DNA of 64,000 bases from Minisyncoccia bacterium (GTDB lineage: Bacteria; Patescibacteriota; Minisyncoccia; 2-02-FULL-40-12; IGHO2-01-FULL-4-A), in assembly GCA_041499075.1 (NCBI GenBank), contig JBGQJN010000001.1, positions 10,388 to 74,387 on the forward strand. The letters run 5' to 3'. Positions 2,629 through 58,469 of this stretch are shown piece after piece; within the stretch, counting starts at the first letter, position 1; each line of letters starts with the position of its first letter. The notes under the pieces were generated by a model, which was not told the DNA's origin, did no database searches, and was given only the letters and a program-made list of their open reading frames with translations. A program made the position numbers and the translations under genes.

Positions 2629-3627
2629 TTATACCAAATTTTCGTCTATGGTTTCCAATACCTTTCGCTTAAGATTGTAGCCATTGCCATACTCAAGCAT
2701 GCCCAAGTAAGAATCGGCAACTTCTTTTTTAACACCACAAGAAATCTTTTTAAACATTCGTCTTCTAGTTGTAGTCCTCAAAACTCTGTGATCTGGAAAA
2801 TTGACCCAGCCGAGAAAATCTACACCGGAAGTTATTGTTCTAATTGAGATTTTGTCTTGATGTAATTTCAGATGAAGTTTTCTATCTAAGAACTCCCCTA
2901 TCCTAGATAGAGCCAACCGAAGCCAAACTTTATCTTTGGATAAAACAACAAAGTCGTCAGCATAACGGATATAATATTTGGCACCAAGTTCATGCTTAAT
3001 GAACTGGTCAAACTCATTCATATAAATATTTACAAAAAGCTGGGAGGTCAGATTGCCCAAGGGTAAACCCCTACCATAACCAGCCGAGAAGCTATCAATA
3101 ACTTGCGACAAAAGCAATAATACATCCTGATCGGAAACATATTGAGATAATATGTTTTTCAAAATGACGTGATTAATATTTTCAAAAAACTTTTTGATAT
3201 CACACTTGAGCGTCCAACAAGTTCGGGTGTTGTTACTACTGGCTTGGTAAGCAAAACTTCTGAAATGATTGATAGCTTTGTGCGTTCCCTTGTTTAATCT
3301 GCAGGAAAAAGAATCGGCCACAAAGACCCGATCAAAAAACGGATACAAAATTCTGTAGATAGCATGGTGAAGAAGACGATCTCGGACCGGCGCTTTGTGT
3401 ATATGCCTTGGTTTCGGATCAGAGATATTGAACGCTTGATATCCGCCGTGTTTATATGTATGATTGGCAAGATGCAATTGCAAACTTAATATATTATCCA
3501 TCAGGTTTAACTGAAAGTCCTGCACGTCACGCTTGTTTCGTTTACCTTTAACGAATTCTCGCCAAGCCTCTAGCAAATTATCAACACTAATTATATCCTC
3601 AAATTTATGAGCCAAAATAGTTTTCAT
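2629..3627 (-). CDS. Diversity-generating retroelement reverse transcriptase
   Basis: Contains LPLGNLTSQLFVNIY, where the DGR-specific SQ replaces QG in RT motif 4. Also has the YADDFVV catalytic motif and a DGR-RT-like N-terminus NLLEAWREFVKGKRNKRDV...PVRDRLLHHA. The start is placed at the internal MKTIL (3627); the 383-aa track ORF would overlap avd. Confidence 0.85.
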   Translation of the reverse strand: MKTILAHKFEDIISVDNLLEAWREFVKGKRNKRDVQDFQLNLMDNILSLQLHLANHTYKHGGYQAFNISDPKPRHIHKAPVRDRLLHHAIYRILYPFFDRVFVADSFSCRLNKGTHKAINHFRSFAYQASSNNTRTCWTLKCDIKKFFENINHVILKNILSQYVSDQDVLLLLSQVIDSFSAGYGRGLPLGNLTSQLFVNIYMNEFDQFIKHELGAKYYIRYADDFVVLSKDKVWLRLALSRIGEFLDRKLHLKLHQDKISIRTITSGVDFLGWVNFPDHRVLRTTTRRRMFKKISCGVKKEVADSYLGMLEYGNGYNLKRKVLETIDENLV

Positions 3628-3648
3628 TTCAATAATCCATCTTCTAAG

Positions 3649-3658
3649 CCCCCCCCCC
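3649..3658. repeat. C10/G10 homopolymeric tract in the divergent avd-RT intergenic region
   Basis: Ten consecutive C lie 9 nt upstream of the avd ATG and 21 nt upstream of the RT ATG (opposite strand). Confidence 0.9.
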
Positions 3659-3667
3659 AGGCCTTCA

Positions 3668-4009
3668 ATGTCCATTATCCAAAGATTTGTCGCGGCATAC
3701 AAGCTTTGGCAAGAGTACATCAGCCACTTTCCGAAAAAATCTCGATATACGCTTGGAGGCAAAATTGACTCTCTTTTCATAGATACCGCAGAACTGATGT
3801 TTACTGCAAGTTATCTCACAAAAGACAAGAAACTGCCATATATTCAAAAAGCGTTGGGCACTTTTGATTTATTAAAATTCTTTCTGCAAATAGCTTGGGA
3901 AATCGGATCAATGGATAACAAGAAATATGCTGCGTTATCTGAACCGCTTAGTGAAATAGGAAGAATGCTCGGAGCCTGGTACAAACAAACACAAACCCCG
4001 TCTAAATAG
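3668..4009 (+). CDS. avd: Avd-like accessory variability determinant (four-helix-bundle, 23S rRNA IVS-protein family)
   Basis: 113 aa with FPKKSRYTLGGKIDSLFIDTAELMF...LGTFDLLKFFLQIAWEIG, the pattern of the four-helix-bundle/Avd family. It lies between TR and RT on the opposite strand. Confidence 0.7.
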   Translation: MSIIQRFVAAYKLWQEYISHFPKKSRYTLGGKIDSLFIDTAELMFTASYLTKDKKLPYIQKALGTFDLLKFFLQIAWEIGSMDNKKYAALSEPLSEIGRMLGAWYKQTQTPSK

Positions 4010-4036
4010 GCGGGTTTTGTAAAAATAACATTAGTT

Positions 4037-4168
4037 TCGGACAGCAGCGAAGCGGCAGTTGTCATTCCACCTGTTGTCGTTCCAGTTCAGGTTCAGCTTG
4101 CGCTTCGAGCCGTTCCTGTTGAGGTAAGGCACGTTGCGGTTGTCGTTGCTATTCTGCCACACGGAGCC
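4037..4168 (-). repeat. DGR template repeat (TR)
   Basis: 132 bp, near-identical to 4516-4649 apart from 25 positions. Every one of those is A on the minus strand of TR and G or T in VR. The TR sense strand is rich in AAC codons. Confidence 0.85.
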
Positions 4169-4423
4169 GTGTACAAGATATCATCTTTACCACTGCCCCT
4201 TGAATACTCTCAGGGCTGTATCGTATTTGGGATCTATAATCCTCCAATACCTTGTACCAAGTATTGTTATTTTAAGAGAAACTAGCGAGGCACGCTGAGA
4301 GAAGCCGTAACCGCCCCCATTCTGTCCTGCATAGCTCTAGAATTCGGCCACCGGAAGCCTTAACCGCCGGCAGATTCGCCTAATATCCAGATATATTAGA
4401 ACATATATTTTTATAAAAATGAA

Positions 4424-4458
4424 GAACTCCCGCTCGCGGAAACCGCGAACGGGAGTTA
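4424..4458 (-). promoter_or_regulatory. GC-rich hairpin immediately downstream of VR / target-gene stop (possible DGR homing-associated hairpin or terminator)
   Basis: actcccgctcgcggaaaccgcgaacgggagt is a 13-bp stem, followed on the minus strand by a U-rich run. Confidence 0.5.
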
Positions 4459-4511
4459 GGAGACCAGGGGTCCAGGGATCAACGGACCCAGAACTCCAGG
4501 AATCAGGGAAC

Positions 4512-5120
4512 CTACTTGCGGACAGCAGCGAAGCGGCAGCCGCCACTCCACCCGCCGTCGCTCCAGCCCAGGAACAGCCCGCGCTCCGAGCCGCCCCCGA
4601 TGAGGCAAGGCACGCTGCGGAAGCCGCTGCTATCCTGCCACACGGAGCCAAGAGCGAAGATTGGGAACTCGCGCTGCTTTTCCGGGTAGGTGACACCGAA
4701 GGCCAGTAGCTCAAGGAGAATCGCCGGACGCATGCCCTTTGACTCGAGGTCTTTGAGCACGTCGTCAGTCGACATATTCCGCCCATAGTGAACGAGCTCG
4801 ATGACGACATCCTGCTGGCCGCTGCCTTGGATCGGGAAGTGGTCGGCGTTGATGTCCTCATTCGCCCAGTCGTACTTGCCGGCCACGATCATCTCCTTGA
4901 GGGACTGGCCGTAGTTGACGACGACCTTGTAGCAGTTCTCGGCCACTCCGACCGCCGCGTCGATCAGCTTCAGAACGAACTCGTCGGTCAGCCGCTTGAT
5001 TGTGTCTTCGGACAGGCCGAGGATCGCTTCCTCCGCCTGGCGCAGCTTGACCGCGCCGATGATCCGAGTGGTGATGGTTGATACGAACCCGAACGCCGAA
5101 CCGATCGCTGACTTTGCCAT
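4512..5120 (-). CDS. DGR target protein (202 aa; C-terminal variable region, likely C-type-lectin-fold ligand-binding domain)
   Basis: C-terminus ...WQDSSGFRSVPCLIGGGSERGLFLGWSDGGWSGGCRFAAVRK is encoded by VR. GC content (~60%+) is well above the surrounding ~45%. Confidence 0.7.
   Translation of the reverse strand: MAKSAIGSAFGFVSTITTRIIGAVKLRQAEEAILGLSEDTIKRLTDEFVLKLIDAAVGVAENCYKVVVNYGQSLKEMIVAGKYDWANEDINADHFPIQGSGQQDVVIELVHYGRNMSTDDVLKDLESKGMRPAILLELLAFGVTYPEKQREFPIFALGSVWQDSSGFRSVPCLIGGGSERGLFLGWSDGGWSGGCRFAAVRK
4516..4649 (-). repeat. DGR variable repeat (VR) at 3' end of target gene
   Basis: See the TR entry. VR covers the last ~44 codons of the 4512..5120 ORF and runs to its stop codon. 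Confidence 0.85.
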
Positions 5121-15743: not shown

Positions 15744-15952
15744 GCGTAGCAGGGTACCCTCTGGGGGATTCCAAAATTGGGAATTGCTGCTTGGTGAAGT
15801 TTCTTGTTGGCGGTGCTTTAGCCCGCCAATAGAATCTCCGTGGTCGCAAGCGGTATAATTATTCCTACCGCGAGCGAATTCACAATTTTGAAATAGTGGA
15901 GTCTGCCGCTGGAGCAGACGAAACGTCCTCCAGAGGATACCCTGCCGAAGCA
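15744..15952 (-). repeat. Structured intergenic repeat family 1, copy A (~210 nt, includes a 52-nt insertion relative to copy B); abuts rplP stop codon
   Basis: Near-identical to 18271-18429. Closing inverted repeat gcagggtaccctctgg / ccagaggataccctgc plus several internal hairpins. No coding potential. Confidence 0.7.
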
Positions 15953-16357
15953 CTATTTTTTAATAAACCTCGTCTTAATTGGTAACTTATGCGCCGCCAG
16001 TCTAAATGCCGCCCTTGCCGTCTCTTCACTTACACCATCCATTTCAAAAATTATCCGGCCGGCTTCCGTCGGTGCCACAAAATGCGACAATGACCCTGCG
16101 CCGCCGCCCATGCCCACTTCAGCGCCCTTCTGCGTCCTTGGCTTGTCAGGGAAAACTCTTATCCATAATTTACCGCCTCTTTGAATAAAATGGGTAACCG
16201 CGCGACGCGCCGATTCCAGCTGTGTCGCTTTTAGCCAGGTTGATTCCATCGCTTTTAAACCATAACTGCCAAAGCTCAAATAGTGGCCGCGGGTTGTGAC
16301 TTTTTTCAAACTTCCCTTATGTACCTTACGATGTTTTATTCTTTTAGGTTGTAACAT
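15953..16357 (-). CDS. rplP: Ribosomal protein L16
   Basis: MLQPKRIKHRKVHKG. Confidence 0.9.
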   Translation of the reverse strand: MLQPKRIKHRKVHKGSLKKVTTRGHYLSFGSYGLKAMESTWLKATQLESARRAVTHFIQRGGKLWIRVFPDKPRTQKGAEVGMGGGAGSLSHFVAPTEAGRIIFEMDGVSEETARAAFRLAAHKLPIKTRFIKK

Positions 16358-18184: not shown

Positions 18185-18270
18185 CTCTGACTCGCGAAAA
18201 ATCGCGAGTTTTTATTTTTAAAGCGGCGGAATCGAAATGCCTTGCGTGTATCGCACTTGCTAAAAATCAA

Positions 18271-18429
18271 GCGTAGGCAGGGTACCCTCTGGGGGATTCC
18301 AAAATTGGGAATTGCTGGGTCGCAAGCGGTATAATTATTCCTACCGCGAGCGAATTCACAATTTTGAAATAGTGGAGTCTGCCGCTGGAGCAGACGGAAC
18401 GTCCTCCAGAGAGTACCCTGCCGAAGCGC
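18271..18429 (-). repeat. Structured intergenic repeat family 1, copy B (~160 nt); abuts rplB stop codon
   Basis: Near-identical to copy A; same closing stem cagggtaccctctgg / ccagagagtaccctg. Confidence 0.7.
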
Positions 18430-19257
18430 TTACTTTTTCCTCCTTCTTACTATAAACTTACTAGATTTTTTCTTGCGGTTACGCGTCTTAACTCCCAGTG
18501 CGTGTTTGCCCCATGGTGTCTTCGGATATTTCAAACCGATTGATTGTCTGCCTTCTCCTCCGCCATGCGGATGATCCACTGGATTCATGGCCGAACCGCG
18601 CACTTTTGGCCGTCTACCAAGATAGCGCGAACGGCCGGCTTTGCCAAGACTGATCGAACCGTGTTCCGTGTTGGATAATTGCCCGATAGAAGCCATGACT
18701 TCACCGCTAAAACGCCTGACTTCAGATGACGGCATAACCACCTGGACATACTTGCCTTCGTGCGCCAGCACCGTGGCACCGCCGCCAGCCGAGCGGACCA
18801 CCTGCCCGCCTTTGCCCGGCTGTAACTCAAGATTGTGGACTATCGTGCCTTGAGGGATATTTTTAAGTTTCATCCTGTTGCCCGGCTCAAGCGCCGTTTT
18901 TTCAGAAGCGACAATGCTACTGCCGGCCCTTAATCCTTCCGGAGCGAGAATGTACCTTCGCTCGCCGTCGGAGTAATGCAGTCTGGCGATCCTTGCGGTA
19001 CGATTTGGATCGTACTCAATGGAGAAAACTTTAGCCGGTATGTTCACTTTGTCCTGTTTGAAATCAATAAACCGGTAAACCCTCTTCACGCCGCCGCCGC
19101 GATGTCGGGAGGTTATCCGACCTTGGTTATTCCTGCCGACCGCACGCTGAAAACCGGTCATTAGATTCTTCAACGGCTCAACTTTGGACAGATTTGAGTA
19201 ATCATAACCCAGCATCTGCCTTCGTCCCGGGGTTGTCGGTTTGTATATTTTGGACAT
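18430..19257 (-). CDS. rplB: Ribosomal protein L2
   Basis: 275 aa, VDHPHGGGEG motif. Confidence 0.95.
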   Translation of the reverse strand: MSKIYKPTTPGRRQMLGYDYSNLSKVEPLKNLMTGFQRAVGRNNQGRITSRHRGGGVKRVYRFIDFKQDKVNIPAKVFSIEYDPNRTARIARLHYSDGERRYILAPEGLRAGSSIVASEKTALEPGNRMKLKNIPQGTIVHNLELQPGKGGQVVRSAGGGATVLAHEGKYVQVVMPSSEVRRFSGEVMASIGQLSNTEHGSISLGKAGRSRYLGRRPKVRGSAMNPVDHPHGGGEGRQSIGLKYPKTPWGKHALGVKTRNRKKKSSKFIVRRRKK

Positions 19258-23243: not shown

Positions 23244-23362
23244 AATAATAACCTTCTAACAAAAAAGTGAGAACCATGCAAGCCAGCGAGTGGGAATGGT
23301 TGCGGCTTATCTACGGGCGGGGTTTGACTAAAAAAGCTAATTCTGCTAATCTGTCTCCAACA

Positions 23363-23830
23363 ATGGAGAGCACACCCGAAACCAAATCTTACGAGCTAGC
23401 CTATCACTTGACGCCTGATATTGAAGAGAGTGAGGCCAGAAACAGAGTGCAGGAGCTCAATGATATAATAACGACCAGCGGCGGTTCAGTTTTAGTTGCC
23501 AAAGAACCGAGAAAGATACATTTGTCTTACTCCGTTAAAAGCAAAAATTATGCTTACTTCGGGATAATGGACTTCCAGGCGGCCAGTGACTCGATAGACA
23601 AGATAAACAACCAGATGAAGCTTCAGAATTCCATCTTACGTTATTTGTTAGTTAAGAAGCCGGAATTCAAGGAAGTGCGAACTTTGGGTGAATATCGCGC
23701 TCGAGCTAGAGTCAAAAAGACTTATGAACCTGCGCCGACAGAAGCCCGCAAAAGCGCACCCAAAGAAAAAACGGCGGAAGAAAAAGCTCAATTAGATGAG
23801 GAACTGGCAAAAGTAATAGAAGGATTATAA
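23363..23830 (+). CDS. rpsF: Ribosomal protein S6
   Basis: KSYELAYHL...YAYFGIMDFQA pattern; the start is chosen at the internal MEST. Confidence 0.8.
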   Translation: MESTPETKSYELAYHLTPDIEESEARNRVQELNDIITTSGGSVLVAKEPRKIHLSYSVKSKNYAYFGIMDFQAASDSIDKINNQMKLQNSILRYLLVKKPEFKEVRTLGEYRARARVKKTYEPAPTEARKSAPKEKTAEEKAQLDEELAKVIEGL

Positions 23831-23834
23831 CAAT

Positions 23835-24368
23835 ATGAATCTAAACAAAGTTTTCTTAATCGGCCGGCTGGCCGCAGATCCGGAATCGCGTACAACACCA
23901 TCGGGGCAGACCGTGACTACTTTAAGATTGGCCACAAATCGCGTTTGGAATAACAGAACTACTGGCGAGAAACAAGAACAGGTTGAGTTTCACACCGTGA
24001 TTGCCTGGGGTAATCTCGCCGAAATATCCTCCAAATACTTACGCAAAGGCCAGCTGGCGCTTTTTGAAGGCCGGATACAGACAAGGTCATGGCAAGGCCA
24101 AGATGGTGTCAAGCGTTATCGCACCGAGATCGTAGCCGACGGCTTACAGTTGGGACCCAAGGCCAGCAATATGCCTGGTAGTTATACGCCAAGGGACTCA
24201 ACATCGGATCAGCAAGTCCAGAGCAATAAACCAGCTTCCGCCGCTAGCACAATAAAAGAAGAAGATATTCCGGTTATCAACGAAGACTCCCCTATTACCA
24301 GCGATCCGGTTATAGCCGATAGCGAAGTGGAGGAAAGTGAAATTAATCTTAAGGATATACCTTTTTAA
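23835..24368 (+). CDS. ssb: Single-stranded DNA-binding protein
   Basis: OB-fold N-terminus LIGRLAADPESRTTPSGQTVTTLRLATNR...FHTVIAWGNLAE and an acidic C-terminal tail ending DIPF. Confidence 0.9.
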   Translation: MNLNKVFLIGRLAADPESRTTPSGQTVTTLRLATNRVWNNRTTGEKQEQVEFHTVIAWGNLAEISSKYLRKGQLALFEGRIQTRSWQGQDGVKRYRTEIVADGLQLGPKASNMPGSYTPRDSTSDQQVQSNKPASAASTIKEEDIPVINEDSPITSDPVIADSEVEESEINLKDIPF

Positions 24369-24369
24369 T

Positions 24370-24582
24370 ATGGTTTGCATTTGTTGCCAGGAAAAAATTA
24401 ATCACGTTGATTATAAAAATACGGACATCCTCCGTAAGTTTGTCTCGGGCCAATTTAAGATCTCCTCTTCTGCCCGCACCGGCCTGTGCCAGAACCATCA
24501 GCGCATGGTCGCCAACGCCGTTAAACTCGCCAGATATATGGCACTGATGCCATATACGAAGTTACAGACATTGAAAAAATAG
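24370..24582 (+). CDS. rpsR: Ribosomal protein S18 (copy 1)
   Basis: MVCICCQEKINHVDYKNTDILRKFVS...; starts 1 nt after the ssb stop. Confidence 0.9.
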   Translation: MVCICCQEKINHVDYKNTDILRKFVSGQFKISSSARTGLCQNHQRMVANAVKLARYMALMPYTKLQTLKK

Positions 24583-24586
24583 TTGA

Positions 24587-24650
24587 CGAGTGTAGGCGAG
24601 GAAATACTGAGGCCAACAGGCCGAACGTGTCGCTCGCCCCTCAATTTTTC
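24587..24650 (+). repeat. Intergenic repeat family 2 (one ~30-nt unit GGCGAGGAAATACTGAGGCCAACAGGCCGAACGTG in stem-loop), directly after rpsR stop
   Basis: Shares TTGACGAG...GGCGAGGAAGTACTGAGGCTAGCAGGCCGAACGTGCCGCTCGC with 56848-56925 and, inverted, 29400-29521. Confidence 0.6.
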
Positions 24651-24867
24651 TTTCAACATCTGTCCCCGGCAAATAATATATTGATTTTCTCATTTCCCTG
24701 GATAAAAAATCATACCCCTTCCGCTACGCAGAGCCCCGACATTAGTCAGGGCTCTGCTTTGCCACATCCTAATTTATTTATCAGCGGAAGATATCAAAAA
24801 TCAATATTTATTTGTACGGCACCATATGGATGACGAGGATCAGAGAGTGTCGCTCTAGATCTCGCTA

Positions 24868-24896
24868 CAAAAACAAAACCGACATGCGATGTCGGC
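24868..24896 (-). terminator. Rho-independent terminator after 125-aa island gene
   Basis: ccgacatgcgatgtcgg hairpin followed by a U-run on the minus strand. Confidence 0.5.
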
Positions 24897-24900
24897 AGGA

Positions 24901-25278
24901 TTATTGAGCTAGAGCAACCTCGGGCTCGGGATCTGGCAATTGATCGGATTGCAAGAACTTACCAAGCAAAACTTCTCTCTCGAGACATGCTAAAGTTTTA
25001 TGGCCATAATTAACACCTTCATCATACCAAGGGATACCTTCTTCGTAAATCTCACGGGTGAATCCAGCGGCAATTAATTTTTCTTTATCAGAACTATACA
25101 ATTTATCCCAGATGACTTTGGCTTCTACATCAAAAGCTCTAGCTAGCGGGCAATTACATGTACCATGGCTACCGACACCTTTAAGCGCCTCTTCTTTTCT
25201 AGTAAATAACAGTCTAATCCATTGCTGCACATTTGCCGCTAATTTTTTAAAGATCCGCTCAAGCTCTGGATCCATCAT
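24901..25278 (-). CDS. Hypothetical protein (125 aa) with Cys/His cluster (HGTCNCP...H...C)
   Basis: ORF in the island between the rpsR copies; no recognisable family. Confidence 0.4.
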   Translation of the reverse strand: MMDPELERIFKKLAANVQQWIRLLFTRKEEALKGVGSHGTCNCPLARAFDVEAKVIWDKLYSSDKEKLIAAGFTREIYEEGIPWYDEGVNYGHKTLACLEREVLLGKFLQSDQLPDPEPEVALAQ

Positions 25279-25520
25279 CTTCCGGCTCCTTGTCTGATTG
25301 ATTATCTACCTGGAACTTTACACCATCTAAAATCTTCCGCAAGCCAAATATAAAAGTGCCAAAAGGCACTTTTATATTTGTTAGTTTCAGATGAATGACG
25401 AAAATCAGAGGACATCGCTTTGGCCTGGGGTATCCTTGGATGGGAACAGAAGCGGGTCACCGATACATTAGACGCTAGTATATGCGGACTAAACAACTGT
25501 TTAATCCCCTATCTAAAATA

Positions 25521-26348
25521 TTATGCCCTGTGTATTTCTAATAGATCGCTTAGAACACTGTCCAAGTACATTTTGATTTGTAGAATCTCCGACCGTCCCT
25601 CTCTGTGGCTGTGAGCCGAAAGTGATCCACGTTCATAAACAGCCCTGACTAAACGAGGCACACTTTCATCAACTATTTGAGCAGCCATTTTCGGAGCTTC
25701 CATGGCCGTATCGGGGATTTCTCTGATTTTGAGAATATAGTGTACTTTCTGTTTCATTGTTGGCTGCTTTTCCCCTTCTTCAAATTTAAAGCCAGGGATC
25801 GCCTCAACTTCGGCATCGGGAGCCAAGTGATCCAAAACCTCACGAAGAACCTCTCGCAACTCAGTAGCCGTACCTCGGTATGATGCTCGGTTTTCCTGCA
25901 GGTCAGCAAGTGCTTGTTTATACGATATCGCCGCTCCAGGAACAACCTGTTCAAGCATATTTAGTATAACTTCATCCTGCTGGGAAGTATTTTTTGTGGC
26001 TGTTCCTTGAGTCCCTCCGGAGAGTCGTTGACTATTTAAATATTCGCGAGATATTTCTGCCTCAGCAAGATTTGCTCCAATTTTTGCAAAAACTTTTTTG
26101 TATACTGTTACCGAGGTGCGGGCACTGGCCATTCTCATCAAATCTTGCATCTGCTTGTCCAGCACCTCCGTTGCAACCATGCCAACAACCAGTTCGGGCC
26201 GTAACTCTCGAAAATATCGTTGCACAAAATATCGGATTCGGTTCTGCAGATTAGCAGAACTGATTTGAATAGAATTGGCACGATTTACTCTGGAAAGAAT
26301 CAGTTTTGTTTCGCGCACAATGGAAAGAAAGGTGTCGCTTTCCGACAC
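25521..26348 (-). CDS. Hypothetical protein (275 aa), predicted all-helical; C-terminal R-x5-H motif (VYERGSLSAHSH) reminiscent of HEPN-type RNase/abortive-infection domains
   Basis: ORF in the island; motif-level resemblance only. Confidence 0.35.
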   Translation of the reverse strand: MSESDTFLSIVRETKLILSRVNRANSIQISSANLQNRIRYFVQRYFRELRPELVVGMVATEVLDKQMQDLMRMASARTSVTVYKKVFAKIGANLAEAEISREYLNSQRLSGGTQGTATKNTSQQDEVILNMLEQVVPGAAISYKQALADLQENRASYRGTATELREVLREVLDHLAPDAEVEAIPGFKFEEGEKQPTMKQKVHYILKIREIPDTAMEAPKMAAQIVDESVPRLVRAVYERGSLSAHSHREGRSEILQIKMYLDSVLSDLLEIHRA

Positions 26349-26384
26349 CCCAGGAGATGTGTTAGCAGATTTAATTCTAGCGGC

Positions 26385-26712
26385 GCTTTTTGAAGGCCGG
26401 ATTCAGACAAGATCATGGCAAGGCCAGGATGGCGTCAAACGCTACCGCACCGAGATTGTAGCCGATGGTTTACAACTGGGACCCAAGGCAAGTAATCCAA
26501 GCACTGCGAATTATCAATCAAACAATCAGACATCGAGACCATCCTCCTACACCTCTCCTTCGCATAAAGCTCCGGATGAGCAAAGCAAGTCTTCGGTAAA
26601 GGAAGAAGACATTCCCGTTATCAATGAAGACTCTCCCATTACCAGCGATCCGGTTATTTCTGATAGTGATGTGGAAGAAACGGAAATTAATTTAAAAGAT
26701 ATACCGTTCTAA
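26385..26712 (+). pseudogene. Diverged duplicate of the ssb 3' half (lacks OB-fold N-terminus)
   Basis: About 85-90% nucleotide identity to 24060-24368. Encodes LFEGRIQTRSWQGQDGVKRYRTEIVADGLQLGPKASN...EEDIPVINEDSPITSDPVI...INLKDIPF. The unrelated upstream frame supplies an ATG. Confidence 0.7.
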
Positions 26713-26814
26713 TCAACGAATAGCGAATATGTACGAATATACCAATATACGAAATGGATTAATTAGTACTTTCGTAAATTAGTATAAATTCGTAATTCGT
26801 TGATAGCGACAAGC

Positions 26815-27024
26815 ATGTGTATTTGTTGCCAGGAAAAAATTAATCACGTTGATTACAAAAATACGGACATCCTCCGCAAGTTTGTTTCCGGTCAATTTAA
26901 GATTTCTTCTTCGGCCCGCACCGGCCTGTGCCAGAATCATCAGCGCATGGTCGCCAACGCCGTCAAACTCGCCCGGTATATGGCGTTGATGCCTTATACC
27001 AAGTTACAAACTATAAAAAAATAA
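26815..27024 (+). CDS. rpsR: Ribosomal protein S18 (copy 2, intact paralog; many synonymous differences vs copy 1)
   Basis: MCICCQEKINHVDYKNTDILRKFVSGQFKISSSARTGLCQNHQRMVANAVKLARYMALMPYTKLQTIKK. Confidence 0.75.
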   Translation: MCICCQEKINHVDYKNTDILRKFVSGQFKISSSARTGLCQNHQRMVANAVKLARYMALMPYTKLQTIKK

Positions 27025-27063
27025 AAACTTCACTTGCCCCATACTTATTACCATAAGTGTGGG

Positions 27064-27104
27064 GTGGCCCTGATGCCGTACACCAAACTCCAGACTATAA
27101 AGAA
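27064..27104 (+). pseudogene. Third remnant of the rpsR 3' end (last ~13 codons LMPYTKLQTIKK*)
   Basis: ctgatgccgtacaccaaactccagactataaagaaataa matches copy 1 at 24540-24582 and copy 2 at 26983-27024, with synonymous changes. Confidence 0.6.
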
Positions 27105-27146
27105 ATAAAAAAAACCGCCAACCAGCGGATTTTTTATTTCTTATTT

Positions 27147-27629
27147 TTAGTAACCTCTCTGATCTTGCTGGAACCTTTCTTCTATTTTTCTTTTTTCGTT
27201 TTCTAAGTCGCTGATTTTCTTTGAGTATTCATCTATCTGCCTCCCGAGATGCGCTTTCATCTCTTGCGTTACAGCTCGGCTATCTTTAAGAGCACTTGCC
27301 CAATCCTCATATTCCCTTCTCCTATTTGGATCCGTAGCATCAACCGGTGACAGTGCGGCATTAAGTTCGTATTCCTTGTCCAATATTTTCCTCATATCTG
27401 GGCCCCTCGATATTTCTAGCCTTCGCTTAAAATCCTCAATTTCAGCAGGGATTTCTGATAATCTCTTTTCGAGCTTAGGTTTTTCCACCACAAATTTCCT
27501 CTTGGCTTCTTCTAGCTTGGCTTGTCTAGCCGCTTCACGTTCTTTTCTAGCTACTTCTTCCATCGGCTCTGGTTCTTTTTCCGCTTCTGCTTTGGGCTTT
27601 ATACCTAAAAATTCTTTAAATGTTGGCAT
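27147..27629 (-). CDS. Hypothetical coiled-coil protein (160 aa, Lys/Glu-rich)
   Basis: ORF; no recognisable family; downstream of recA. Confidence 0.4.
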   Translation of the reverse strand: MPTFKEFLGIKPKAEAEKEPEPMEEVARKEREAARQAKLEEAKRKFVVEKPKLEKRLSEIPAEIEDFKRRLEISRGPDMRKILDKEYELNAALSPVDATDPNRRREYEDWASALKDSRAVTQEMKAHLGRQIDEYSKKISDLENEKRKIEERFQQDQRGY

Positions 27630-27678
27630 GTTCCCAATCTACCACTAGTGTTTTTTTTTGCAATTCGGTTATCAACAT

Positions 27679-27720
27679 AGCTCCGTATATAATTAGCATA
27701 TGCTAATTATATACGGAGCT
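27679..27720. promoter_or_regulatory. Perfect 42-bp palindrome (candidate operator)
   Basis: agctccgtatataattagcata|tgctaattatatacggagct; between the recA stop and the 27147..27629 start. Confidence 0.5.
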
Positions 27721-27746
27721 ATCAGTTAAAGGCATTAATCTAAAGC

Positions 27747-27872: not shown

Positions 27873-28907
27873 CTATGCCTCCTTGACTGCCGCCGCTTTG
27901 CGGACGGCACCAAGTATCTCCTTCTCAATCTTGGGATTTTCTTTGAGGAATTGGCGGGCGCCTTCAATGCCCTGACCGAGCTTCTGTTCACCGAAGTTAT
28001 ACCAGGCACCGGCCTTAGCAACCACGCCGAGAATCACACCGGTATTAACCAGATCGGCATGTCGGGAGATGCCCTCGTTATAGAGAATATCAAACTCTGC
28101 CACACGGAATGGCGCGGCAACTTTGTTTTTGACGATTTTGACTTTGACTCGATTGCCGATAATTTTCTCGCCGGATTGTATCTGCGCGGCTCGGCGGATC
28201 TCAATTCTGACTGAAGCATAAAATTTAAGAGCAAGGCCACCGGTTGTCGTTTCCGGATTGCCGAACATAACACCAATCTTGTGCCTTATTTGGTTTATAA
28301 ACAAAACCGTGGTGTTGGTTTTGGAAACCACGCCGGTCAGTTTGCGTAAAGCATGTGACATCAGCCGCGCTTGTAGGCCCATGTGCTGTTGGTCCATTTC
28401 ACCTTCAATCTCGGCACGCGGTGTGAGCGCGGCCACGGAATCTACTACTACAAGTTGAATCCCACCAGACCTTACCAAAGTTTCTACTATCTCAAGCGCT
28501 TGCTCGCCGTTGTCCGGTTGAGAAATTAAAAGATCGTTAACCCTGACGCCGATTTTTTTGGCATATTCCGGGTCAAGCGCGTGCTCGGCATCGACATATG
28601 CCGCCACACCGCCGGCCTTCTGGACTTCAGCTACGAGATGCAAAGCCAAAGTCGTCTTACCGGAACTTTCCGGACCATAGACTTCTACCACGCGTCCTCG
28701 TGGAATACCGCCAACACCCAATGCCAGGTCCAGCGAGATCGAGCCGGTTGGTATAACGTCGACATCAACTCTCCGCGCGTCACCAAGTTTCATAATCGAG
28801 CCGTCACCGTATTTTTCCTGTATCTCCCTGACAGCGAGATCCACGCTCCTGTTACTTAGATCAGACTTACTCTGCTTCTCCTCCTTCTTATTTTTTTCTT
28901 TAACCAT
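27873..28907 (-). CDS. recA: Recombinase A
   Basis: GPESSGKTT Walker A; L1/L2 loops; 344 aa. Confidence 0.95.
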
Positions 28908-29399: not shown

Positions 29400-29521
29400 T
29401 TATCATCACATTCAGGCTGCTGCCTTCAGTATTTCCTACATTCAGCTTGTTAGCTTCAGTACTTCCTCGCTTCCTCTCGGTCGTCGCCGGAGTTTATACT
29501 GAGCCAGCGAAGTGCTCCTCA
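29400..29521 (-). repeat. Intergenic repeat family 2 (expanded copy, two tandem ~30-nt units) directly after ftsK stop
   Basis: Reverse complement reads GGTTGAGGAGCACTTCGCTGGCTCAGTATAAACTCCGGCGA...GGAAGTACTGAAGCTAACAAGCTGAATGTAGGAAATACTGAAGGCAGCAGCCTGAATGT. Confidence 0.6.
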
Positions 29522-29524
29522 ACC

Positions 29525-31783
29525 TCATTCTTCTATGGCTATCTTGTCGTCTAGCTTTGAATCTACAGATACAACCTCGGCTGTGCTACCATCATCCACG
29601 TAGTTATCTTCAACGGGCACAGGCACGCCCCCGCCCCTGCCGATATAGACTTCCCTGGGTTTAGCACCCTCGCCGGGGCCGATTATGCCCGCCTCTTCAA
29701 GTAGGTCAAGCAATCTCGCCGCTCTGGCATAACCCACTCGCAATCTACGTTGGAGTAAAGATGCCGATGCCTTGCCGGCTTGAGCCACGACGACCTTGGC
29801 ATCACCAAATAAGACGTCTCCCATGCCGTCATCAGAGCCGGTCAAGGTCGCATCAGAAACCGGAGCATCAAGGTCAAGCTTGAGATCACTGCCCTCCGTC
29901 TCGTCGGCATTTTCTTCTTCAAGACTTTCGGCCTGTTGTTTGATAAATTTAACGACATCCTTGACTTCTTTCTCGGTGACATAAGAACCTTGTAACCGGC
30001 GTGGTTTGGCAGTATCGCCGGCAAGATAAAGCATATCGCCGTTGCCCAAGAGTTTTTCGGCGCCGGACATATCCAAAATAGTCCGCGAATCAACTTGAGA
30101 AGCAACTTGTAAAGCAATACGCGAAGTAATGTTCGCCTTGATCAAACCGGTAATGACTTCTACTGACGGGCGCTGGGTAGAGACAACCAGATGAATACCG
30201 ACTGCGCGGGCCATCTGGGCCAAACGCACGATCCCGGCTTCCACATCCCTGCCGTGCGCCGCCATCAAATCAGCCAATTCATCAATAACAATAACTATGA
30301 ACGGCATGAGATCAGCTTTGGCTTCAGACTGTTTAGTATTAAATGAGAACAAATCGCGCGAACCGGAAACCGAGAGACGTTCGTAGCGTTTTTCCATTTC
30401 TCTGACTGCCCAGCGCAAGGCGTTGACTACTTTTTTGCCATCGGTAATGACCGGAGTAATCAGGTGCGGAATATTATTGTAAAGTGATAGCTCGACGCGC
30501 TTGGGGTCAACCAAAATCAGCTTGAGCATATCCGGCGAATGCTTGTACAAAAGTGAAAGCAAAAGCGTATTAATGGCAATGGATTTGCCGGTGCCAGTCG
30601 CACCGGCTATTAACATATGCGGCATCTTTTCAAGCCCGGCATAGACCGGGAAACCGGCAACATCGCGGCCGATAGCAATCGGCAGAGAATATTTACTTTT
30701 CTTGAAATCTTCCGGCTCAAACATATCGCGTAAACCGACGAGGGCGGATTTCTTGTTAGGGACTTCTATGCCGACAAGCGCCTTACCGGGAATGGGTGCT
30801 TCTATTCTTATGGGATGCGCCGCCAAAGCCAAAGCTAAATCCGGTCCCAGGGCGGTAATCTTTGACAGCTTCACGCCCACTGCCGGACGCAAAGTGAATT
30901 GGGTAACAGTCGGTCCGATGGAGACTTCGCCCATTTCAACGTCAATGCCGAAATTCTGAAGCGTGCGCTTGATCACTGTCACATTGGCATTGATATCCCC
31001 TGATCTAGGTTGGTCTTTGTCAGAATGCAATATCTCAATCGGCGGCAGAACCCATTTGCCTGATTTGGACGTCTTAATCACAAACTCCCGCTCTTCGTCA
31101 TCATGTTTGGCGGCAGTTTTGGCAATAACTTGGAGTTTCGGATTTTTAGCGGCGGCTTCCTCAGCCCTTTGCATTTCCGCTGTAATTACCTGGGTACCGC
31201 GCTTGATAACAACGTTGTCTTTGAGCACGGGCACTCCCGTGCTTTCTTCAGTTTCGTCTTCGGTTTTCCACAATAACTTATGAAATGGAATGTTTAAAGC
31301 TATAAGCACCGATACAAAAAGCAAAATCAGAAGAATAATAAATGAAGCAACAAAGCCAACCGAGCTATATATGGGAAGTCCCAGGATAAGGCCGAGATAA
31401 CCGCCCTGATGCACCCGCAAAGCAAAGTCGCCTTTGCCTATAATGTAAAACAGCGCCAAAAAAGTCAGAACAAAAAGCAGCGTACCCAAGGTTGCGCTTG
31501 AGTAAATACGGCGGGACATTGATTTCAAGAAGGCAACACCGAGCAATATCAGCGCCAGTGGCACCAAAAACATACCCCAGCCGAAAAGTGCGCCGGCCAC
31601 GGAACCAAAAAGATCTCCGGCCCCGCCGGCTTTGTGGAAGAACGCCAGCGTGCTTACCAAGGCCAGACCTAGACAAGCTACTCCCCAGATGCCATTTTTC
31701 GTCTCTTGCGACAAACCCAAATGCTCTTTAGTCTCCCCTGTTTCTTTTTCAGCCTTATTATATTTTTTGAGCTTCTTTTTCAC
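29525..31783 (-). CDS. ftsK: DNA translocase FtsK/SpoIIIE
   Basis: N-terminal TM domain, Walker A GATGTGKS, C-terminal gamma (winged-helix) domain. Confidence 0.9.
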   Translation of the reverse strand: MKKKLKKYNKAEKETGETKEHLGLSQETKNGIWGVACLGLALVSTLAFFHKAGGAGDLFGSVAGALFGWGMFLVPLALILLGVAFLKSMSRRIYSSATLGTLLFVLTFLALFYIIGKGDFALRVHQGGYLGLILGLPIYSSVGFVASFIILLILLFVSVLIALNIPFHKLLWKTEDETEESTGVPVLKDNVVIKRGTQVITAEMQRAEEAAAKNPKLQVIAKTAAKHDDEEREFVIKTSKSGKWVLPPIEILHSDKDQPRSGDINANVTVIKRTLQNFGIDVEMGEVSIGPTVTQFTLRPAVGVKLSKITALGPDLALALAAHPIRIEAPIPGKALVGIEVPNKKSALVGLRDMFEPEDFKKSKYSLPIAIGRDVAGFPVYAGLEKMPHMLIAGATGTGKSIAINTLLLSLLYKHSPDMLKLILVDPKRVELSLYNNIPHLITPVITDGKKVVNALRWAVREMEKRYERLSVSGSRDLFSFNTKQSEAKADLMPFIVIVIDELADLMAAHGRDVEAGIVRLAQMARAVGIHLVVSTQRPSVEVITGLIKANITSRIALQVASQVDSRTILDMSGAEKLLGNGDMLYLAGDTAKPRRLQGSYVTEKEVKDVVKFIKQQAESLEEENADETEGSDLKLDLDAPVSDATLTGSDDGMGDVLFGDAKVVVAQAGKASASLLQRRLRVGYARAARLLDLLEEAGIIGPGEGAKPREVYIGRGGGVPVPVEDNYVDDGSTAEVVSVDSKLDDKIAIEE

Positions 31784-43200: not shown

Positions 43201-43403
43201 TTGTCCGCTCAGCGAGCGGACTGCATTCCGTTGAAAGCGTGGATTTTACTCGCAGTGGCGAATTATACTGCTCACAAACCATGCAATCCACTCTTTCAAC
43301 GGTGCTATAGAGCATGTGCGCCAGACTCAAAAATTTATCCAAAAATTACAAACCGGAGCCGATAGCAATCGGCGATACCTGGCAATCAGATAGTTATTAA
43401 GTA

Positions 43404-43486
43404 AAGGATGTTTTAGTAGGCGGAGGCGCGTGCGTTTTGCGCCTGTCCCGAAGGGCCAGCAAAACACGCGCGCGTAGCCGTACTAA
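43404..43486 (-). repeat. Intergenic repeat family 3 (~85 nt GC-rich hairpin element), copy 1
   Basis: Reverse complement is nearly identical to 58386-58469. Core gcgcgtgcgttttgc-gcctgtcccgaagggccagc-gcaaaacacgcgcgc. Confidence 0.6.
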
Positions 43487-43532
43487 ATACTTTTTTGCTA
43501 AGTGGGTTTGTAATTTTTGAGGAAACTGGCAA

Positions 43533-44172: not shown

Positions 44173-44550
44173 CTAGAATGCGCCACCGCTCAAGCTAGAT
44201 ACAACGTAGTTTGCGGTAGCAAGTATCAAACCAACAGCCACCACCACCACTATTCCTATGAAACCATGAAGTATCGTGCCTCTGGCTTCCTCCGCCTTTT
44301 TCGCGTCACCTCGGGCAAGCATGTATTTCAAACCACCATAAACTATGAAAATAACTCCGATCGTGACACCAACTACCATCAAATATGTAGCAGCCTGGTT
44401 GATGATGCCAACAATACCATTTAATGTTACTGCTCCCGTTGTAGAACCAGGATTAGGAATAGGCACCTTTGCTTGTGCTAATGCTAATAACGGTAAGGCA
44501 AACCATGCCAACGGACTTGCCATCTTAATCATTTTTTTAATTTTATTCAT
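44173..44550 (-). CDS. VirB2/TrbC-like pilin (125 aa: signal peptide plus two hydrophobic helices separated by a charged loop)
   Basis: LNGIVGIINQAATYLMVVGVTIGVIFIVYGGLKYMLARGDAKKAEEARGTILHGFIGIVVVVAVGLILA; this architecture is typical of T4SS pilins. Confidence 0.55.
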   Translation of the reverse strand: MNKIKKMIKMASPLAWFALPLLALAQAKVPIPNPGSTTGAVTLNGIVGIINQAATYLMVVGVTIGVIFIVYGGLKYMLARGDAKKAEEARGTILHGFIGIVVVVAVGLILATANYVVSSLSGGAF

Positions 44551-44677
44551 ACGACACCCCCCTTCAGACTAGAATCTAGCGCTAGTTTTTAGTTACTAGT
44601 GCTTATCGCCGGCTGAACTAAAAACTAAACCTAGAACCTAGAAATCTTAATATTAAATTCTTGTTTCTATAGACAAA

Positions 44678-45700
44678 TTAACAAACTAGCGGAATAATGG
44701 AAACACTTGAACCTACCGCGTAAGCAACAGTAGCCATTATAACATACACGCCTATGATTACCAGTAAACCTATCAACACATGGCCAAAATTCTTTGTAGC
44801 GGCGGCAAATGCCGTAGGATTGCCTCTGGCATGCATGAAACGCAAACCGGCAATGACAATGAAAATAACCATTATGCCGTCGGCGGCGGTAAGCAGATAG
44901 CAGGCAAGCTTGGTGATTATCTTAAAAACATCCTGAATGGTCAGGTCAACCCCCGGCAAACCGCTGGTACCCGTAGTAGTCCCCGCTCCCGTCCCCGCTC
45001 CCGTACCCGTACCCGTTCCCGTACCTGTCCCAGTTCCAGTACCTGTCCCAGTTCCAGTACCTGTGCCTGTACCAGTGCCACCACCGGCAGGATTGGTAAC
45101 ACAAGTTGTGCCTGTCCAACTACAAGCTGGATTAAGGTTACATCTATTACCCGTACAATCGTTCGGCACTGGATAGTTAGCACAGCTTGTAATAGTTGAA
45201 CAATTAGGATTGATGGTTGTAGCCCGGGTCTGGATGTTAAATTGCGGTGAGGACCAGGTTTGACCTGGATTGAGACTGGCCAGAGTATCTAAAGCAGCTT
45301 TGGAAGTCCCCTGGCTTGATGCCGAACAATAGAAGAAACCAACGTAACGATTCTGCTGTTGATCAACACCCGAGCTAAAATTATAAGTTATATCTTGACC
45401 GCTGCCAGGAGACAGATACTCATAGTTAATGGCCGATCCGGCAATATAGTGCCTGACGGCATTAAAGAGTGAACCGGAATTGCAGGTAGGAGGTGAGCCA
45501 TTCGATTGTTGAAATACAGAAAAACTTAAATTAACAGTTTGAGCCGGGTCAACACCGGTCGCTCCAGTGGCAAGATCATCGCTTTCGTTGACACAAATAC
45601 CGTTATTACAACTTTGAGCGGTGTTGGTAGCAGAAACATTGTTTCCAATTAAAAACGTTGCAATGATTATTAGAAGCAATATTTTGTAGAAATTTTTCAT
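44678..45700 (-). CDS. Secreted Cys-rich protein with (Gly-Thr)n linker and C-terminal VirB2/TrbC-like two-helix module
   Basis: Signal peptide; many Cys; GTGTGTGTGTGTGTGTGTGTGTGTGAGTGAGTTTGT linker; C-terminus IMVIFIVIAGLRFMHARGNPTAFAAATKNFGHVLIGLLVIIGVYVI. Confidence 0.55.
   Translation of the reverse strand: MKNFYKILLLIIIATFLIGNNVSATNTAQSCNNGICVNESDDLATGATGVDPAQTVNLSFSVFQQSNGSPPTCNSGSLFNAVRHYIAGSAINYEYLSPGSGQDITYNFSSGVDQQQNRYVGFFYCSASSQGTSKAALDTLASLNPGQTWSSPQFNIQTRATTINPNCSTITSCANYPVPNDCTGNRCNLNPACSWTGTTCVTNPAGGGTGTGTGTGTGTGTGTGTGTGTGTGTGAGTGAGTTTGTSGLPGVDLTIQDVFKIITKLACYLLTAADGIMVIFIVIAGLRFMHARGNPTAFAAATKNFGHVLIGLLVIIGVYVIMATVAYAVGSSVSIIPLVC
44950..45075 (-). repeat. Imperfect hexanucleotide (GGNACN)n coding repeat encoding Gly-Thr linker, including an 18-nt perfect tandem duplication
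   Basis: Plus strand ccccgctcccgtccccgctcccgtacccgtacccgttcccgtacctgtcccagttccagtacctgtcccagttccagtacctgtgcc. Confidence 0.8.
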
Positions 45701-45704
45701 TGAA

Positions 45705-46835: not shown

Positions 46836-46884
46836 ATTTAATTTGATTGGATTTCTTTTATCAAGGGCTCTAAAATGTCAAACG

Positions 46885-47227
46885 TTAGTTGGTTAGCAGG
46901 TCTTGCGCAAGGCGATCAATCTTTTCCGGGATCAGTTGAATTATTAAATCAATATCGGCTGTAAACCGCGGCCTACCCCAAATCGCAAGGGCAAAACTTC
47001 CGGTAATAACGTAGGAAATTCTTAAATTATCAAGGATTGCGGCTATTATTGTCAGTAAGTTTTCTTGCTCCATAATTAAAATATGCCGGGTTAAGCTTGC
47101 GGGCCAACTTAAAGAAATTGCTGACTATTTTTACTTTTTGTTCGGCCGACATTTTTTGAAAAACCTCGTCCTGAATATCTTGAGCGGTTTTTATTTTGGC
47201 CGTTTGAGCTGATGACATATTGGGCAT
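46885..47227 (-). pseudogene. Possible remnant of a small two-gene module: 65-aa ORF plus truncated minimal nucleotidyltransferase (MNT)-like ORF (GSFALAIWGRPRFTADIDL)
   Basis: Two overlapping short ORFs; the second has the GS...DxD nucleotidyltransferase motif but only 62 aa. Confidence 0.3.
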
Positions 47228-47274
47228 TGTACTTGCTATTAATTCCCTTATGATATTTTACTACCTAAAACGAA

Positions 47275-47958: not shown

Positions 47959-47963
47959 ATTAA

Positions 47964-56595: not shown

Positions 56596-56844
56596 ATGAA
56601 AGCTAGTATACATCCACAATATTATGAGGCGACAGTACACTGCGCCTGCGGCAATAAATGGAAAACCGGCTCAACTATGCCGGAAATTAGCGTGGAAATA
56701 TGCAGTAACTGCCATCCATTTTACACCGGCAAAGAGAAGCTTTTGGATGCTCGCGGCCGGGTAGATAAGTTCAAAAAACGTATGAGCAAGTCCGAAGAAA
56801 TCATAAAAACCAAGGCTGCCAAGAAACCCCGCACCAAAAAGTAA
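56596..56844 (+). CDS. rpmE: Ribosomal protein L31
   Basis: [22 protein letters not shown]...[11 protein letters not shown]. Confidence 0.9.
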
Positions 56845-56847
56845 TTG

Positions 56848-56925
56848 ACGAGCACTTCGCCAGCTCAGCATAAACTCCGGCGAGGAAGTACTGAGGCTAG
56901 CAGGCCGAACGTGCCGCTCGCTTAT
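56848..56925 (+). repeat. Intergenic repeat family 2 copy directly after rpmE stop
   Basis: TTGACGAGCACTTCGCCAGCTCAGCATAAACTCCGGCGAGGAAGTACTGAGGCTAGCAGGCCGAACGTGCCGCTCGC. Confidence 0.6.
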
Positions 56926-58332: not shown

Positions 58333-58385
58333 TTGTAATCAAAAATTAAAAACTAGCTTAGCAAAAACTTTTTAGTACGGTTGCG

Positions 58386-58469
58386 CACGTGCGTTTTGCT
58401 GGCCCTTCGGGACAGGCGCAAAACACACGTGCCTCCACCTACTGGAACATCCTTTGATTGGTAATTAGG
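58386..58469 (+). repeat. Intergenic repeat family 3, copy 2 (inverted relative to copy 1)
   Basis: agtacggttgcgcacgtgcgttttgctggcccttcgggacaggcgcaaaacacacgtgcctccacctactggaacatcctttg. Confidence 0.6.

Follow-up and report, generated by a model that had tools for sequence, protein, structure and literature searches.

The sequences that stand at the stop codons of rpsR, rpmE and ftsK in the window (the whole stretch of 64,000 nucleotides that was analysed) are copies of an element of 47-49 nt that consists of two hairpins rich in G·A pairs and recurs in many lineages of Patescibacteria. The element is almost certainly a real structured family. Its best explanation, to which we assign a probability of roughly 0.6, is a non-autonomous, strand-specific structured insertion element that is selfish or once was; we infer its mobility from its distribution. 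Read in this way, the three odd post-stop sequences of the window would be ordinary insertions, and their interpretation as terminators falls away. Patescibacteria have tiny, streamlined genomes with very few characterised non-coding or mobile features. The element has apparently not been described before: the searchable literature, exact sequence strings included, gave no description of it or of such a repeat, and a permissive Rfam search on two copies (E up to 10) matched no family except for a non-significant match to the archaeal C/D RNA sR16 (E 0.46 to 1.7, 14-17 bits compared to a 70-bit cut-off).

Window copies and the structure of the unit

Four motif units lie at three loci of the window, which we call copies A, B and C (Table 1). 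The degenerate unit GGAARTACTGARGCYARCARGCYGAAYGT matches the window four times (24600-24628 +, 56884-56912 +, 29438-29466 - and 29408-29436 -), with 0.00 matches expected by chance according to dinucleotide-preserving shuffles. A covariance model, R1, built from copies of the element in other genomes, finds exactly those four units, the next match having an E value of 0.5, and a repeat finder independently ties all three loci together (pairs I2, I4 and I8). The sequence-only reading of this DNA, which had described a modular hairpin repeat at three loci, is confirmed to this extent. It had also placed the copies 0-3 nt from stop codons and in the orientation of the genes, and this holds as well: copies A and B follow the stops of rpsR (24580-24582) and rpmE (56842-56844) with a gap of 0 nt, copy C follows that of ftsK (29527-29525) with a gap of 2 nt, and all three are in gene-sense orientation. 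The copies run with the local gene direction and GC skew keeps one sign over most of the window, a comparison that is weak evidence, with three copies in 64 kb and GC skew confounded with gene strand.

Conservation in the matched flanks reaches 18-19 nt upstream and ends sharply after GAAYGT-R. The unit is about 48 nt long and has two hairpins, not the ~30 nt of the sequence-only reading, and several of the parts named there have to be redrawn. The supposed lead-in TTGA(C/G)GAG forms the 5' strand of hairpin 1, what had been taken for an "18-nt insert" in the ftsK copy is itself a canonical hairpin 1 that belongs to a complete unit, and the stem that had been named (GGCGAGG...CGCTCGCC) is present in copies A and B only and is not the conserved stem.

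We derived the fold by running RNAalifold on 61 distinct units and then counting pairs. Hairpin 1 has the form RY-GA-CC-GA-RY-[4-5-nt loop]-RY-GA-GG-AA-RU, in which short Watson-Crick steps have tandem purine-purine loops between them. From the outside inwards it comprises Y3-R25 (CG 48, UA 12), G4A5 opposite A23A24, C6-G22, C7-G21, G8A9 opposite G19A20, R10-Y18 (GC 42, AU 11, GU 4) and Y11-R17 (CG 56, UA 5). Hairpin 2 has the form UAC-UGA-[4-bp free-sequence stem, ANCA loop]-GAA-Y-GUR, with U26-R50, A27-U49 and C28-G48 paired, U29G30A31 opposite G44A45A46 and Y47 bulged. Its apical loop is AGCA in 70% of units, and 51 distinct combinations of its stem occur among the matches listed.

The covariation strongly supports this two-hairpin fold. 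Fold and covariation analysis, proposed as a check in the sequence-only reading, bears out a structured repeat: 97.1% of cells are paired, compared to 84.6% after shuffling, and the covariation score is 0.414, compared to 0.174 in shuffled alignments, with 0 of 500 shuffles scoring as high; columns fixed by the search pattern are invariant by construction in these comparisons, and the stem columns are unconstrained. Two-sided changes occur at seven pairs of the fold, and a slid control, in which the 3' partners were shifted, pairs at only 21-40%. In 117 model-aligned sequences, the eleven pairs hold G:U 51 times and A:C 21 times; a separate count of hairpin 2 alone gives 21 and 7. This excess implies that the gene-sense strand folds alone, as RNA or as single-stranded DNA. 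The single-sequence folding energy of the window copies is unremarkable (z-scores -1.9, -0.3 and -0.8).

Units occur singly, in tandem, 5'-truncated to hairpin 2, or enlarged by additional sequence in the hairpin-1 loop, and the window holds several of these forms. Copy A has an a-type hairpin 1 with one C-G pair fewer than the canonical form and a 4-nt loop. Its 3' flank is the source of the outer stem seen in the sequence-only reading, a local feature and not one of the family. Copy B, which R1 matches at 56857-56913 (E 4e-8), also has an a-type hairpin 1 (TTGACGAGC...GGCGAGGAAGT), with an insert of ~25 nt (56854-56878) in place of the apical loop. The same loop insert is found in the first module of copy C, which is homologous to the 5' part of copy B and represents an a-type hairpin 1 that has been truncated; the module and 56845-56886 form inverted-repeat pair I2 (42 nt, 88% identity). 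A 31-nt module, GAGCACTTCGCYRGCTCAGYATAAACTCCGG, is common to copies B and C. The hairpin-2-only unit at the end of copy C lies 35 nt upstream of the start of the next gene at 29371. The gene after that for L31 encodes a class-I release factor (prfA). A stretch within prfA that resembles the element (57072-57086) was rejected as a further copy; it is a variable linker that is present in relatives too. No tRNA genes were found in the window, and no Rfam family was found in the whole window at gathering thresholds.

Table 1. Copies of the element in the window, their parts and the genes upstream of them
Feature	Position	Strand	Basis or remark
S6, SSB and S18 genes	23267-24582	+	upstream of copy A
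Copy A, one complete unit, after the rpsR stop	24583..24629	+	R1 46.8 bits, E 1.5e-10, full model covered
Copy A hairpin 1, short "a-type" TTGACGAGTGTAGGCGAGGAAAT	24583-24605	+	sequence
Copy A hairpin 2, ACTGA-GGCC-AACA-GGCC-GAACGTG	24606-24629	+	sequence
Copy A 3' flank TCGCTCGCCCCTCAA, partly complementary to the 5' strand of hairpin 1	24630..24644	+	minimum-energy fold uses GGCGAG/CTCGCC
FtsK gene	29525-31783	-	upstream of copy C
Copy C, whole locus	29407-29522	-	
Copy C first module, TTGAGGAGC + ~25-nt loop insert + GGCG	29485..29522	-	2 nt after the ftsK stop
Copy C complete canonical "b-type" unit, ACGACCGAGAGGAAGCGAGGAAGTACTGA-AGCT-AACA-AGCT-GAATGTA	29437..29484	-	R1 57.4 bits, E 2.4e-13, best in window
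Copy C 5'-truncated unit, hairpin 2 only, GGAAATACTGA-AGGC-AGCA-GCCT-GAATGTG	29407..29436	-	R1 28.4 bits, E 1e-5
L31 gene	56596-56844	+	upstream of copy B
Copy B, after the rpmE stop, ends 16 nt before the prfA start	56845..56913	+	pattern match and R1
Copy B hairpin 2	56889-56913	+	sequence

Distribution and genomic context of the element

A motif search in other genomes, the other check proposed in the sequence-only reading, showed that the repeat extends well beyond the window. Scanning one genome per species with the exact pattern GGAARTACTGANNNNANCANNNNGAAYGT yielded at least 116 stretches, and the matches listed come from Patescibacteria genome assemblies of many projects, with the exception of six chance matches. 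R1 gives 128 matches within the listed loci. The lineages named are Kaiser-, Yanofsky-, Lloyd-, Jorgensen-, Taylor-, Nomura-, Vogel- and Zambryskii-bacteria and Paceibacterota, together with one Microgenomatus and many records labelled Saccharibacteria. The chance matches are L027, L119 and a coding motif of Firmicutes nrdD-like genes; the nrdD-like matches outside Patescibacteria are a different coding sequence without the hairpin. In 2.9 million viral contigs scanned with the same pattern there was one chance match of the nrdD type and no element.

Copies per genome often seem to be few, for example 2-3 pattern matches on contigs of 0.4-0.5 Mb. One assembly (CAYIPF...) has matches on at least 13 contigs, where they lie within a larger repeat of ~250 nt. 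This larger repeat has further hairpins (e.g., CGTCCGCCTTTGGCGGACG and CCTCGGGGCTTTGCCCCGAGG) and holds one or two 48-nt units; it accounts for L026, L065, L083, L095, L104, L113, L013, L057 and L102, from two assemblies, and its copies are near-identical, which suggests a recent burst; the repeat may be a MITE or a non-coding RNA.

Genomic context was assessed with crude gene calls on about 130 composite copies. The sequence-only reading had treated placement directly after a stop codon as a property of the repeat, and as a rule for the family this does not stand. Among the matches listed, about a third of the copies elsewhere lie inside coding sequence, ~50 of the about 130 copies fall inside long open frames, and the distance to the upstream stop ranges in other genomes from -28 to more than 2000 nt. 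Intergenic copies between co-directional genes are in sense orientation in 28 cases and antisense in 12 (among the matches listed).

The copies inside genes are probably read as protein. A strict test, in which the sense frame had to be open for at least 150 nt on both sides, left 22 sense copies among the matches listed, 14 in frame 0 and 8 in frame 1; frame 2, which reads TAC TGA, was used by 0 of the 22. Programmed ribosomal bypass or an excised mini-intron at these copies is rejected, since the stop-containing frame is never used. In a Pfam scan of ten sense hosts, seven were well-known proteins: a Wzy-type ligase, SerRS, DNA polymerase I (PolA), NAD-dependent LigA, an epimerase, GDH and PurD. 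The insert mostly falls within the Pfam domain of those hosts. In LigA it corresponds to a gap of 19 residues in the comparison with E. coli LigA, and a homologue of the Wzy-type protein without the insert exists. A further sense copy lies within atpD. Copies inside genes are therefore probably translated as a hydrophilic insert of 16 residues and not removed. By comparison, antisense ORFs that span a copy have Pfam support in two of nine cases, with the insert outside the domain in both. Inserts of 16 residues in essential enzymes affect annotation, structure prediction and alignment.

The element is also linked to tRNA genes. Six or seven of the eight tRNA-Pro genes in the listed loci have it directly 3', in the orientation of the tRNA (L031, L041, L064, L067, L100, L111 and L112), for three isoacceptors (GGG, TGG and CGG anticodons) and in at least five genomes, a Microgenomatus among them. 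In L041, L111 and L112, the first base of the element comes directly after the 3' end of tRNA-Pro. This linkage looks more like a conserved association than random insertion; the element marks tRNA-Pro 3' ends, and use as a lineage marker is possible. A different arrangement is found in L106 (1560-1775 -), where, after a complete tRNA-Ser(GGA), its 3' half occurs in part a second time, and exactly one 47-nt unit breaks the T-loop of the partial tRNA, with at most 1 nt of junction ambiguity. The layout of L106 resembles an att-like duplication beside a tRNA gene.

Some copies occupy the same site in different genomes. These are conserved above their flanks, and the differences between them are compensatory pairs. 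In L018 and L038, for example, whose flanks are 84/82% identical, the stems are GCGC/GCGC and GCUU/AAGC, respectively. L024 and L105 have the stems GGCG/CGCC and GCUC/GAGC, with the encoded peptide altered, and L029 and L118 have C3-G25 and U3-A25. This pattern would fit selection that acts on the structure at its site, and equally gene conversion or a templated correction of quasi-palindromes.

Insertion, mobility and alternative readings

The spacer between rpmE and prfA illustrates how placement after stop codons can arise. Among 80 loci encoding release-factor relatives, in which PrfA is mostly 74-82% identical, those with rpmE upstream have a spacer that is mostly 0-15 nt long, a few having other, unrelated inserts. 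None of these spacers contains the element, and R1 finds 0 copies in the whole 398 kb from the relatives. Given a spacer of 0-15 nt, any insertion there must touch the stop codon. The copies in the window abut stop codons because the spacers are tiny, and their position is not evidence of a signal.

The element lacks the terminal inverted repeats and the target-site duplication of a MITE: within 150 nt downstream of ~120 units there were 0 inverted copies of the 5' end, the only partial one being at window copy A, a target duplication of more than 1 nt is absent at the tRNA T-loop of L106, and no duplication is seen at the rpmE-prfA site. All-against-all clustering of 2,353 ORFs from the 8-kb flanks of ~106 loci found no linked gene family in more than 8 loci, and no transposase, reverse transcriptase or nuclease was consistently linked in those flanks. 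Small GIY-YIG nuclease genes occur in 7 of the ~106 loci and adjoin the element in only two. The suggestion in the sequence-only reading of a short repeat derived from an insertion sequence was thus close to the evidence in proposing a mobile-element-like repeat; the derivation itself found no support, with no transposase, inverted termini or link to an insertion sequence. The matches listed include tandem, truncated and nested copies, and the tandem copies of L115 are identical.

The element most resembles known repeats in its behaviour. Like REP/BIME with RAYT and like IS200/IS605, it has short (20-50 nt) strand-specific hairpin units, present singly and in clusters, without terminal inverted repeats or target duplication, and as with REP/BIME its copies are mostly intergenic, about a third being in coding sequence, and often right after stop codons. 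It differs from REP in its two G·A-looped hairpins per unit. Its stems vary freely and its loops and flanks are invariant, unlike REP, in which the stems are conserved within any one genome; and its range takes in deeply divergent Patescibacteria lineages, whereas REP is usually specific to one genus. In addition, many of its copies are inside genes, and no RAYT or Y1 transposase turned up close to a copy in the 8-kb flanks of the ~106 loci or among the window ORFs scanned.

Rickettsia palindromic elements (RPE) are known as selfish DNA in protein-coding genes. Like them, the element is a structured repeat that lies in frame in conserved essential genes, where it would be translated as an extra hydrophilic segment, and that is also present in non-coding regions and beside RNA genes; the hosts SerRS, PolA, LigA, GDH and PurD carry it in frame, and only open frames are used. 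RPE are about 100-150 bp long and, as far as is known, confined to Rickettsia, whereas the element has 48 nt (16 codons) and occurs in many Patescibacteria lineages. The two probably have unrelated sequences, and the resemblance we claim is one of behaviour only. Pneumococcal BOX (boxA-boxB(n)-boxC) and mycobacterial MIRU are likewise modular, with variable tandem sub-units, and sit in short operon spacers in the orientation of the genes. Their sequences and sizes are different, however, and neither is found in frame inside genes; the overlap of MIRU with the stop and start codons of flanking genes is no feature of the element.

We propose that elements of this kind would have landed in the very short gene-to-gene spacers of the window genome, thereby touching stop codons, and that copies would be carried inside transcripts and, within genes, translated. 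Their spread may involve the gene-sense strand as a single-stranded intermediate, and a putative trans-acting enzyme would recognise the invariant loops and flanks of that intermediate. The version we tentatively prefer, at less than even odds, is a single-stranded DNA route like that of REP/RAYT or IS200/IS605. An RNA route with a reverse transcriptase is our second choice and a distinctly less likely one. Several observations count against the insertion reading, namely the lack of a consistently linked transposase, reverse transcriptase or nuclease in the flanks, conservation across lineages, compensatory pairs at the same site, linkage to tRNA-Pro and seemingly few copies in many genomes. 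Conservation of sequence over deep Patescibacteria lineages is unusual for elements of the REP or MITE type, which are usually genus-specific.

Alternatively, the element could be a cis-acting RNA that serves the host, either as a protective or processing structure at 3' ends or as a source of small RNAs from 3' UTRs and tRNA trailers. In this alternative, which we consider less likely but a real possibility, the module would be bound by a conserved Patescibacteria protein, and copies would arise inside genes only as by-products. Functional RNAs likewise combine invariant loops with covarying stems, and compensatory differences at orthologous sites point the same way. G:U exceeds A:C on the gene-sense strand, sense copies outnumber antisense ones between co-directional genes, antisense ORFs seldom have Pfam support, and the window copies track gene direction under a GC skew of one sign. 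At L041, L111 and L112, 3' processing of tRNA-Pro would release an element with a defined 5' end. A 3' external transcribed spacer such as 3'ETS-leuZ of E. coli, or a small RNA derived from a 3' UTR, is comparable in being a structured segment that starts at a tRNA 3' end or a stop codon and is releasable by 3' processing; the element differs from these in being dispersed, in lying also in coding regions and antisense, and in being known from sequence alone. However, the distribution is patchy, as the empty rpmE-prfA spacer of close relatives illustrates, gene context is not conserved, antisense orientation is found in 12 of the 40 intergenic copies that lie between co-directional genes, and the element is absent from Rfam. 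Nor is there an obvious RNA purpose for insertions inside the catalytic domains of essential enzymes. A role as RNA in 3'-end processing or stabilisation is possible.

A claim that spans the insertion reading and the host-RNA alternative, and that we regard as possible rather than probable, is that the element is a structured nucleic-acid module common to many Patescibacteria lineages and read by conserved machinery specific to the group. It would be either a new mobile structured element that draws on a conserved enzyme of its host or a functional RNA released from the trailers of tRNA-Pro and from 3' UTRs, its structure being kept at individual loci even in coding sequence, at the expense of the peptide. 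The same invariant bases are found from Parcubacteria-type groups to at least one Microgenomates genome, which points to a conserved partner that reads the element; an enzyme or an RNA-binding protein would be candidates.

The sequence-only reading had suggested a terminator role, and an intrinsic (Rho-independent) terminator after rpsR, rpmE and ftsK is very improbable. Copy A could form a long outer stem and has TTTTTCTTTC 6 nt further on, but no window copy has a terminator-like stem plus T-run on its own strand, and copies B and C, without a T-run, end 16 and 35 nt before the next co-directional gene. The outer stem is unconserved, the family consensus runs from its terminal GAAYGUR straight into unconserved sequence, where a terminator would have a U-run, and in other genomes sense copies lie in frame within essential genes. 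A small self-cleaving ribozyme with a hammerhead-like layout (hairpin, CUGA, hairpin, GAA) is equally improbable. We take the arrangement UGA-[stem]-GAA to match U7-G8-A9/G12-A13-A14 of hammerhead domain 2, and a ribozyme would also suit the abundance of unpaired bases that do not vary, the tandem arrangement of some copies and the high copy number. The C3-U4-G5-A6 that precedes U7 in the hammerhead and the A15.1 that follows A14 are absent, however, with GUAC and Y in their places, no Rfam ribozyme family, the hammerhead included, matches at E up to 10, and cleavage at the sense copies in atpD, polA, ligA and serS would destroy the mRNAs of these genes. An origin in chance or low-complexity similarity, or in an artefact of assembly or adapters, is refuted: only the shortness of the motif speaks for it, and against it stand 0 matches expected by chance, many independent projects, covarying stems, in-frame contexts and a handful of matches outside Patescibacteria that are hairpin-free nrdD-like coding sequence.

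Several known structures were compared with the element and rejected. The hammerhead core, CUGANGA ... GAAA, does not correspond to the element, in which CUGA comes directly before the stem and is followed by GAAY. A kink-turn or box C/D RNA has a C-stem, a 3-nt bulge, tandem sheared G·A pairs and the boxes RUGAUGA and CUGA; the internal loops of the element are symmetric 2x2, or 3x4 with a 1-nt bulge. The core sites R''/R' of integron attC (RYYYAAC ... GTTRRRY) are absent from the consensus, and the contexts of the element are housekeeping genes. A TIGR array (TIGR-Tas) is a long tandem array with two variable spacers per unit beside a Tas gene with a Nop domain (PMC12045711). The element is excluded from that class by its architecture, being made of dispersed singletons whose sole variable part is a self-complementary 4-bp stem.

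The ssb-rpsR island and other features of the window

Copy A lies at the edge of a duplicated segment. The 3' part of ssb together with rpsR (24056-24581) recurs at 26382-27023 with 84-90% identity, and a third rpsR 3' fragment of 41 nt is found at 27068-27108. Copy A begins where the homology of the ssb-rpsR copies ends, right after the left rpsR stop, and the displaced right rpsR copy (copy 2) has no element. This is consistent with copy A having arrived as part of an incoming segment, downstream of that segment's rpsR. Its place at the island border would then arise because it directly follows the stop codon of the incoming rpsR copy. The ssb-rpsR copies enclose two ORFs on the minus strand, of which one (25521-26348) has a predicted pPIWI-associated nuclease domain. 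The 3' end of rpsR resembles a site of repeated integration or recombination; no integrase was seen at 24056-27110.

The window contains other repeats as well. A second family is palindromic, ~180-230 nt long, with copies at 15745-15965 and 18270-18440 - that are 94-100% identical. It has the terminal inverted repeats GCAGGGTACCCTCTGGGGGA, one copy has an internal insert of ~50 nt, and each copy stands right after a stop codon in a ribosomal-protein gene cluster. This second family looks like a classical MITE. A diversity-generating retroelement occupies 2629-5120 -. Its reverse transcriptase (RVT_1) is encoded at 2629-3780, its template repeat lies at ~4032-4168, and its variable repeat (~4513-4649) is located at the 3' end of ORF 4512-5120; wherever the two repeats differ, the template copy has an adenine. 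A 105-nt inverted-repeat pair (43391-43495 and 58363-58467), 84% complementary and 15 kb apart, is adjoined by 29-nt arms at 43492-43520 and 58339-58367. A perfect palindrome of 46 nt (ATAGCTCCGTATATAATTAGCAT / ATGCTAATTATATACGGAGCTAT) lies at 27677-27722, between recA (27873-28907 -) and ORF 27147-27629.

In the region 44173-50978 -, pilin-like domains of type IV secretion are encoded by ORFs at 44173-44550 and 45705-46835, which adjoin ORFs with tandem repeats of 12 and 18 nt (44961-45088 and 48643-49208). The ORFs with tandem repeats probably encode repetitive surface proteins. Two adjacent paralogous glycoside-hydrolase-like genes (GH5/GH39), at 59323-60059 and 60705-61450, have 75-84% nucleotide identity over ~700 nt, which suggests a recent tandem duplication.
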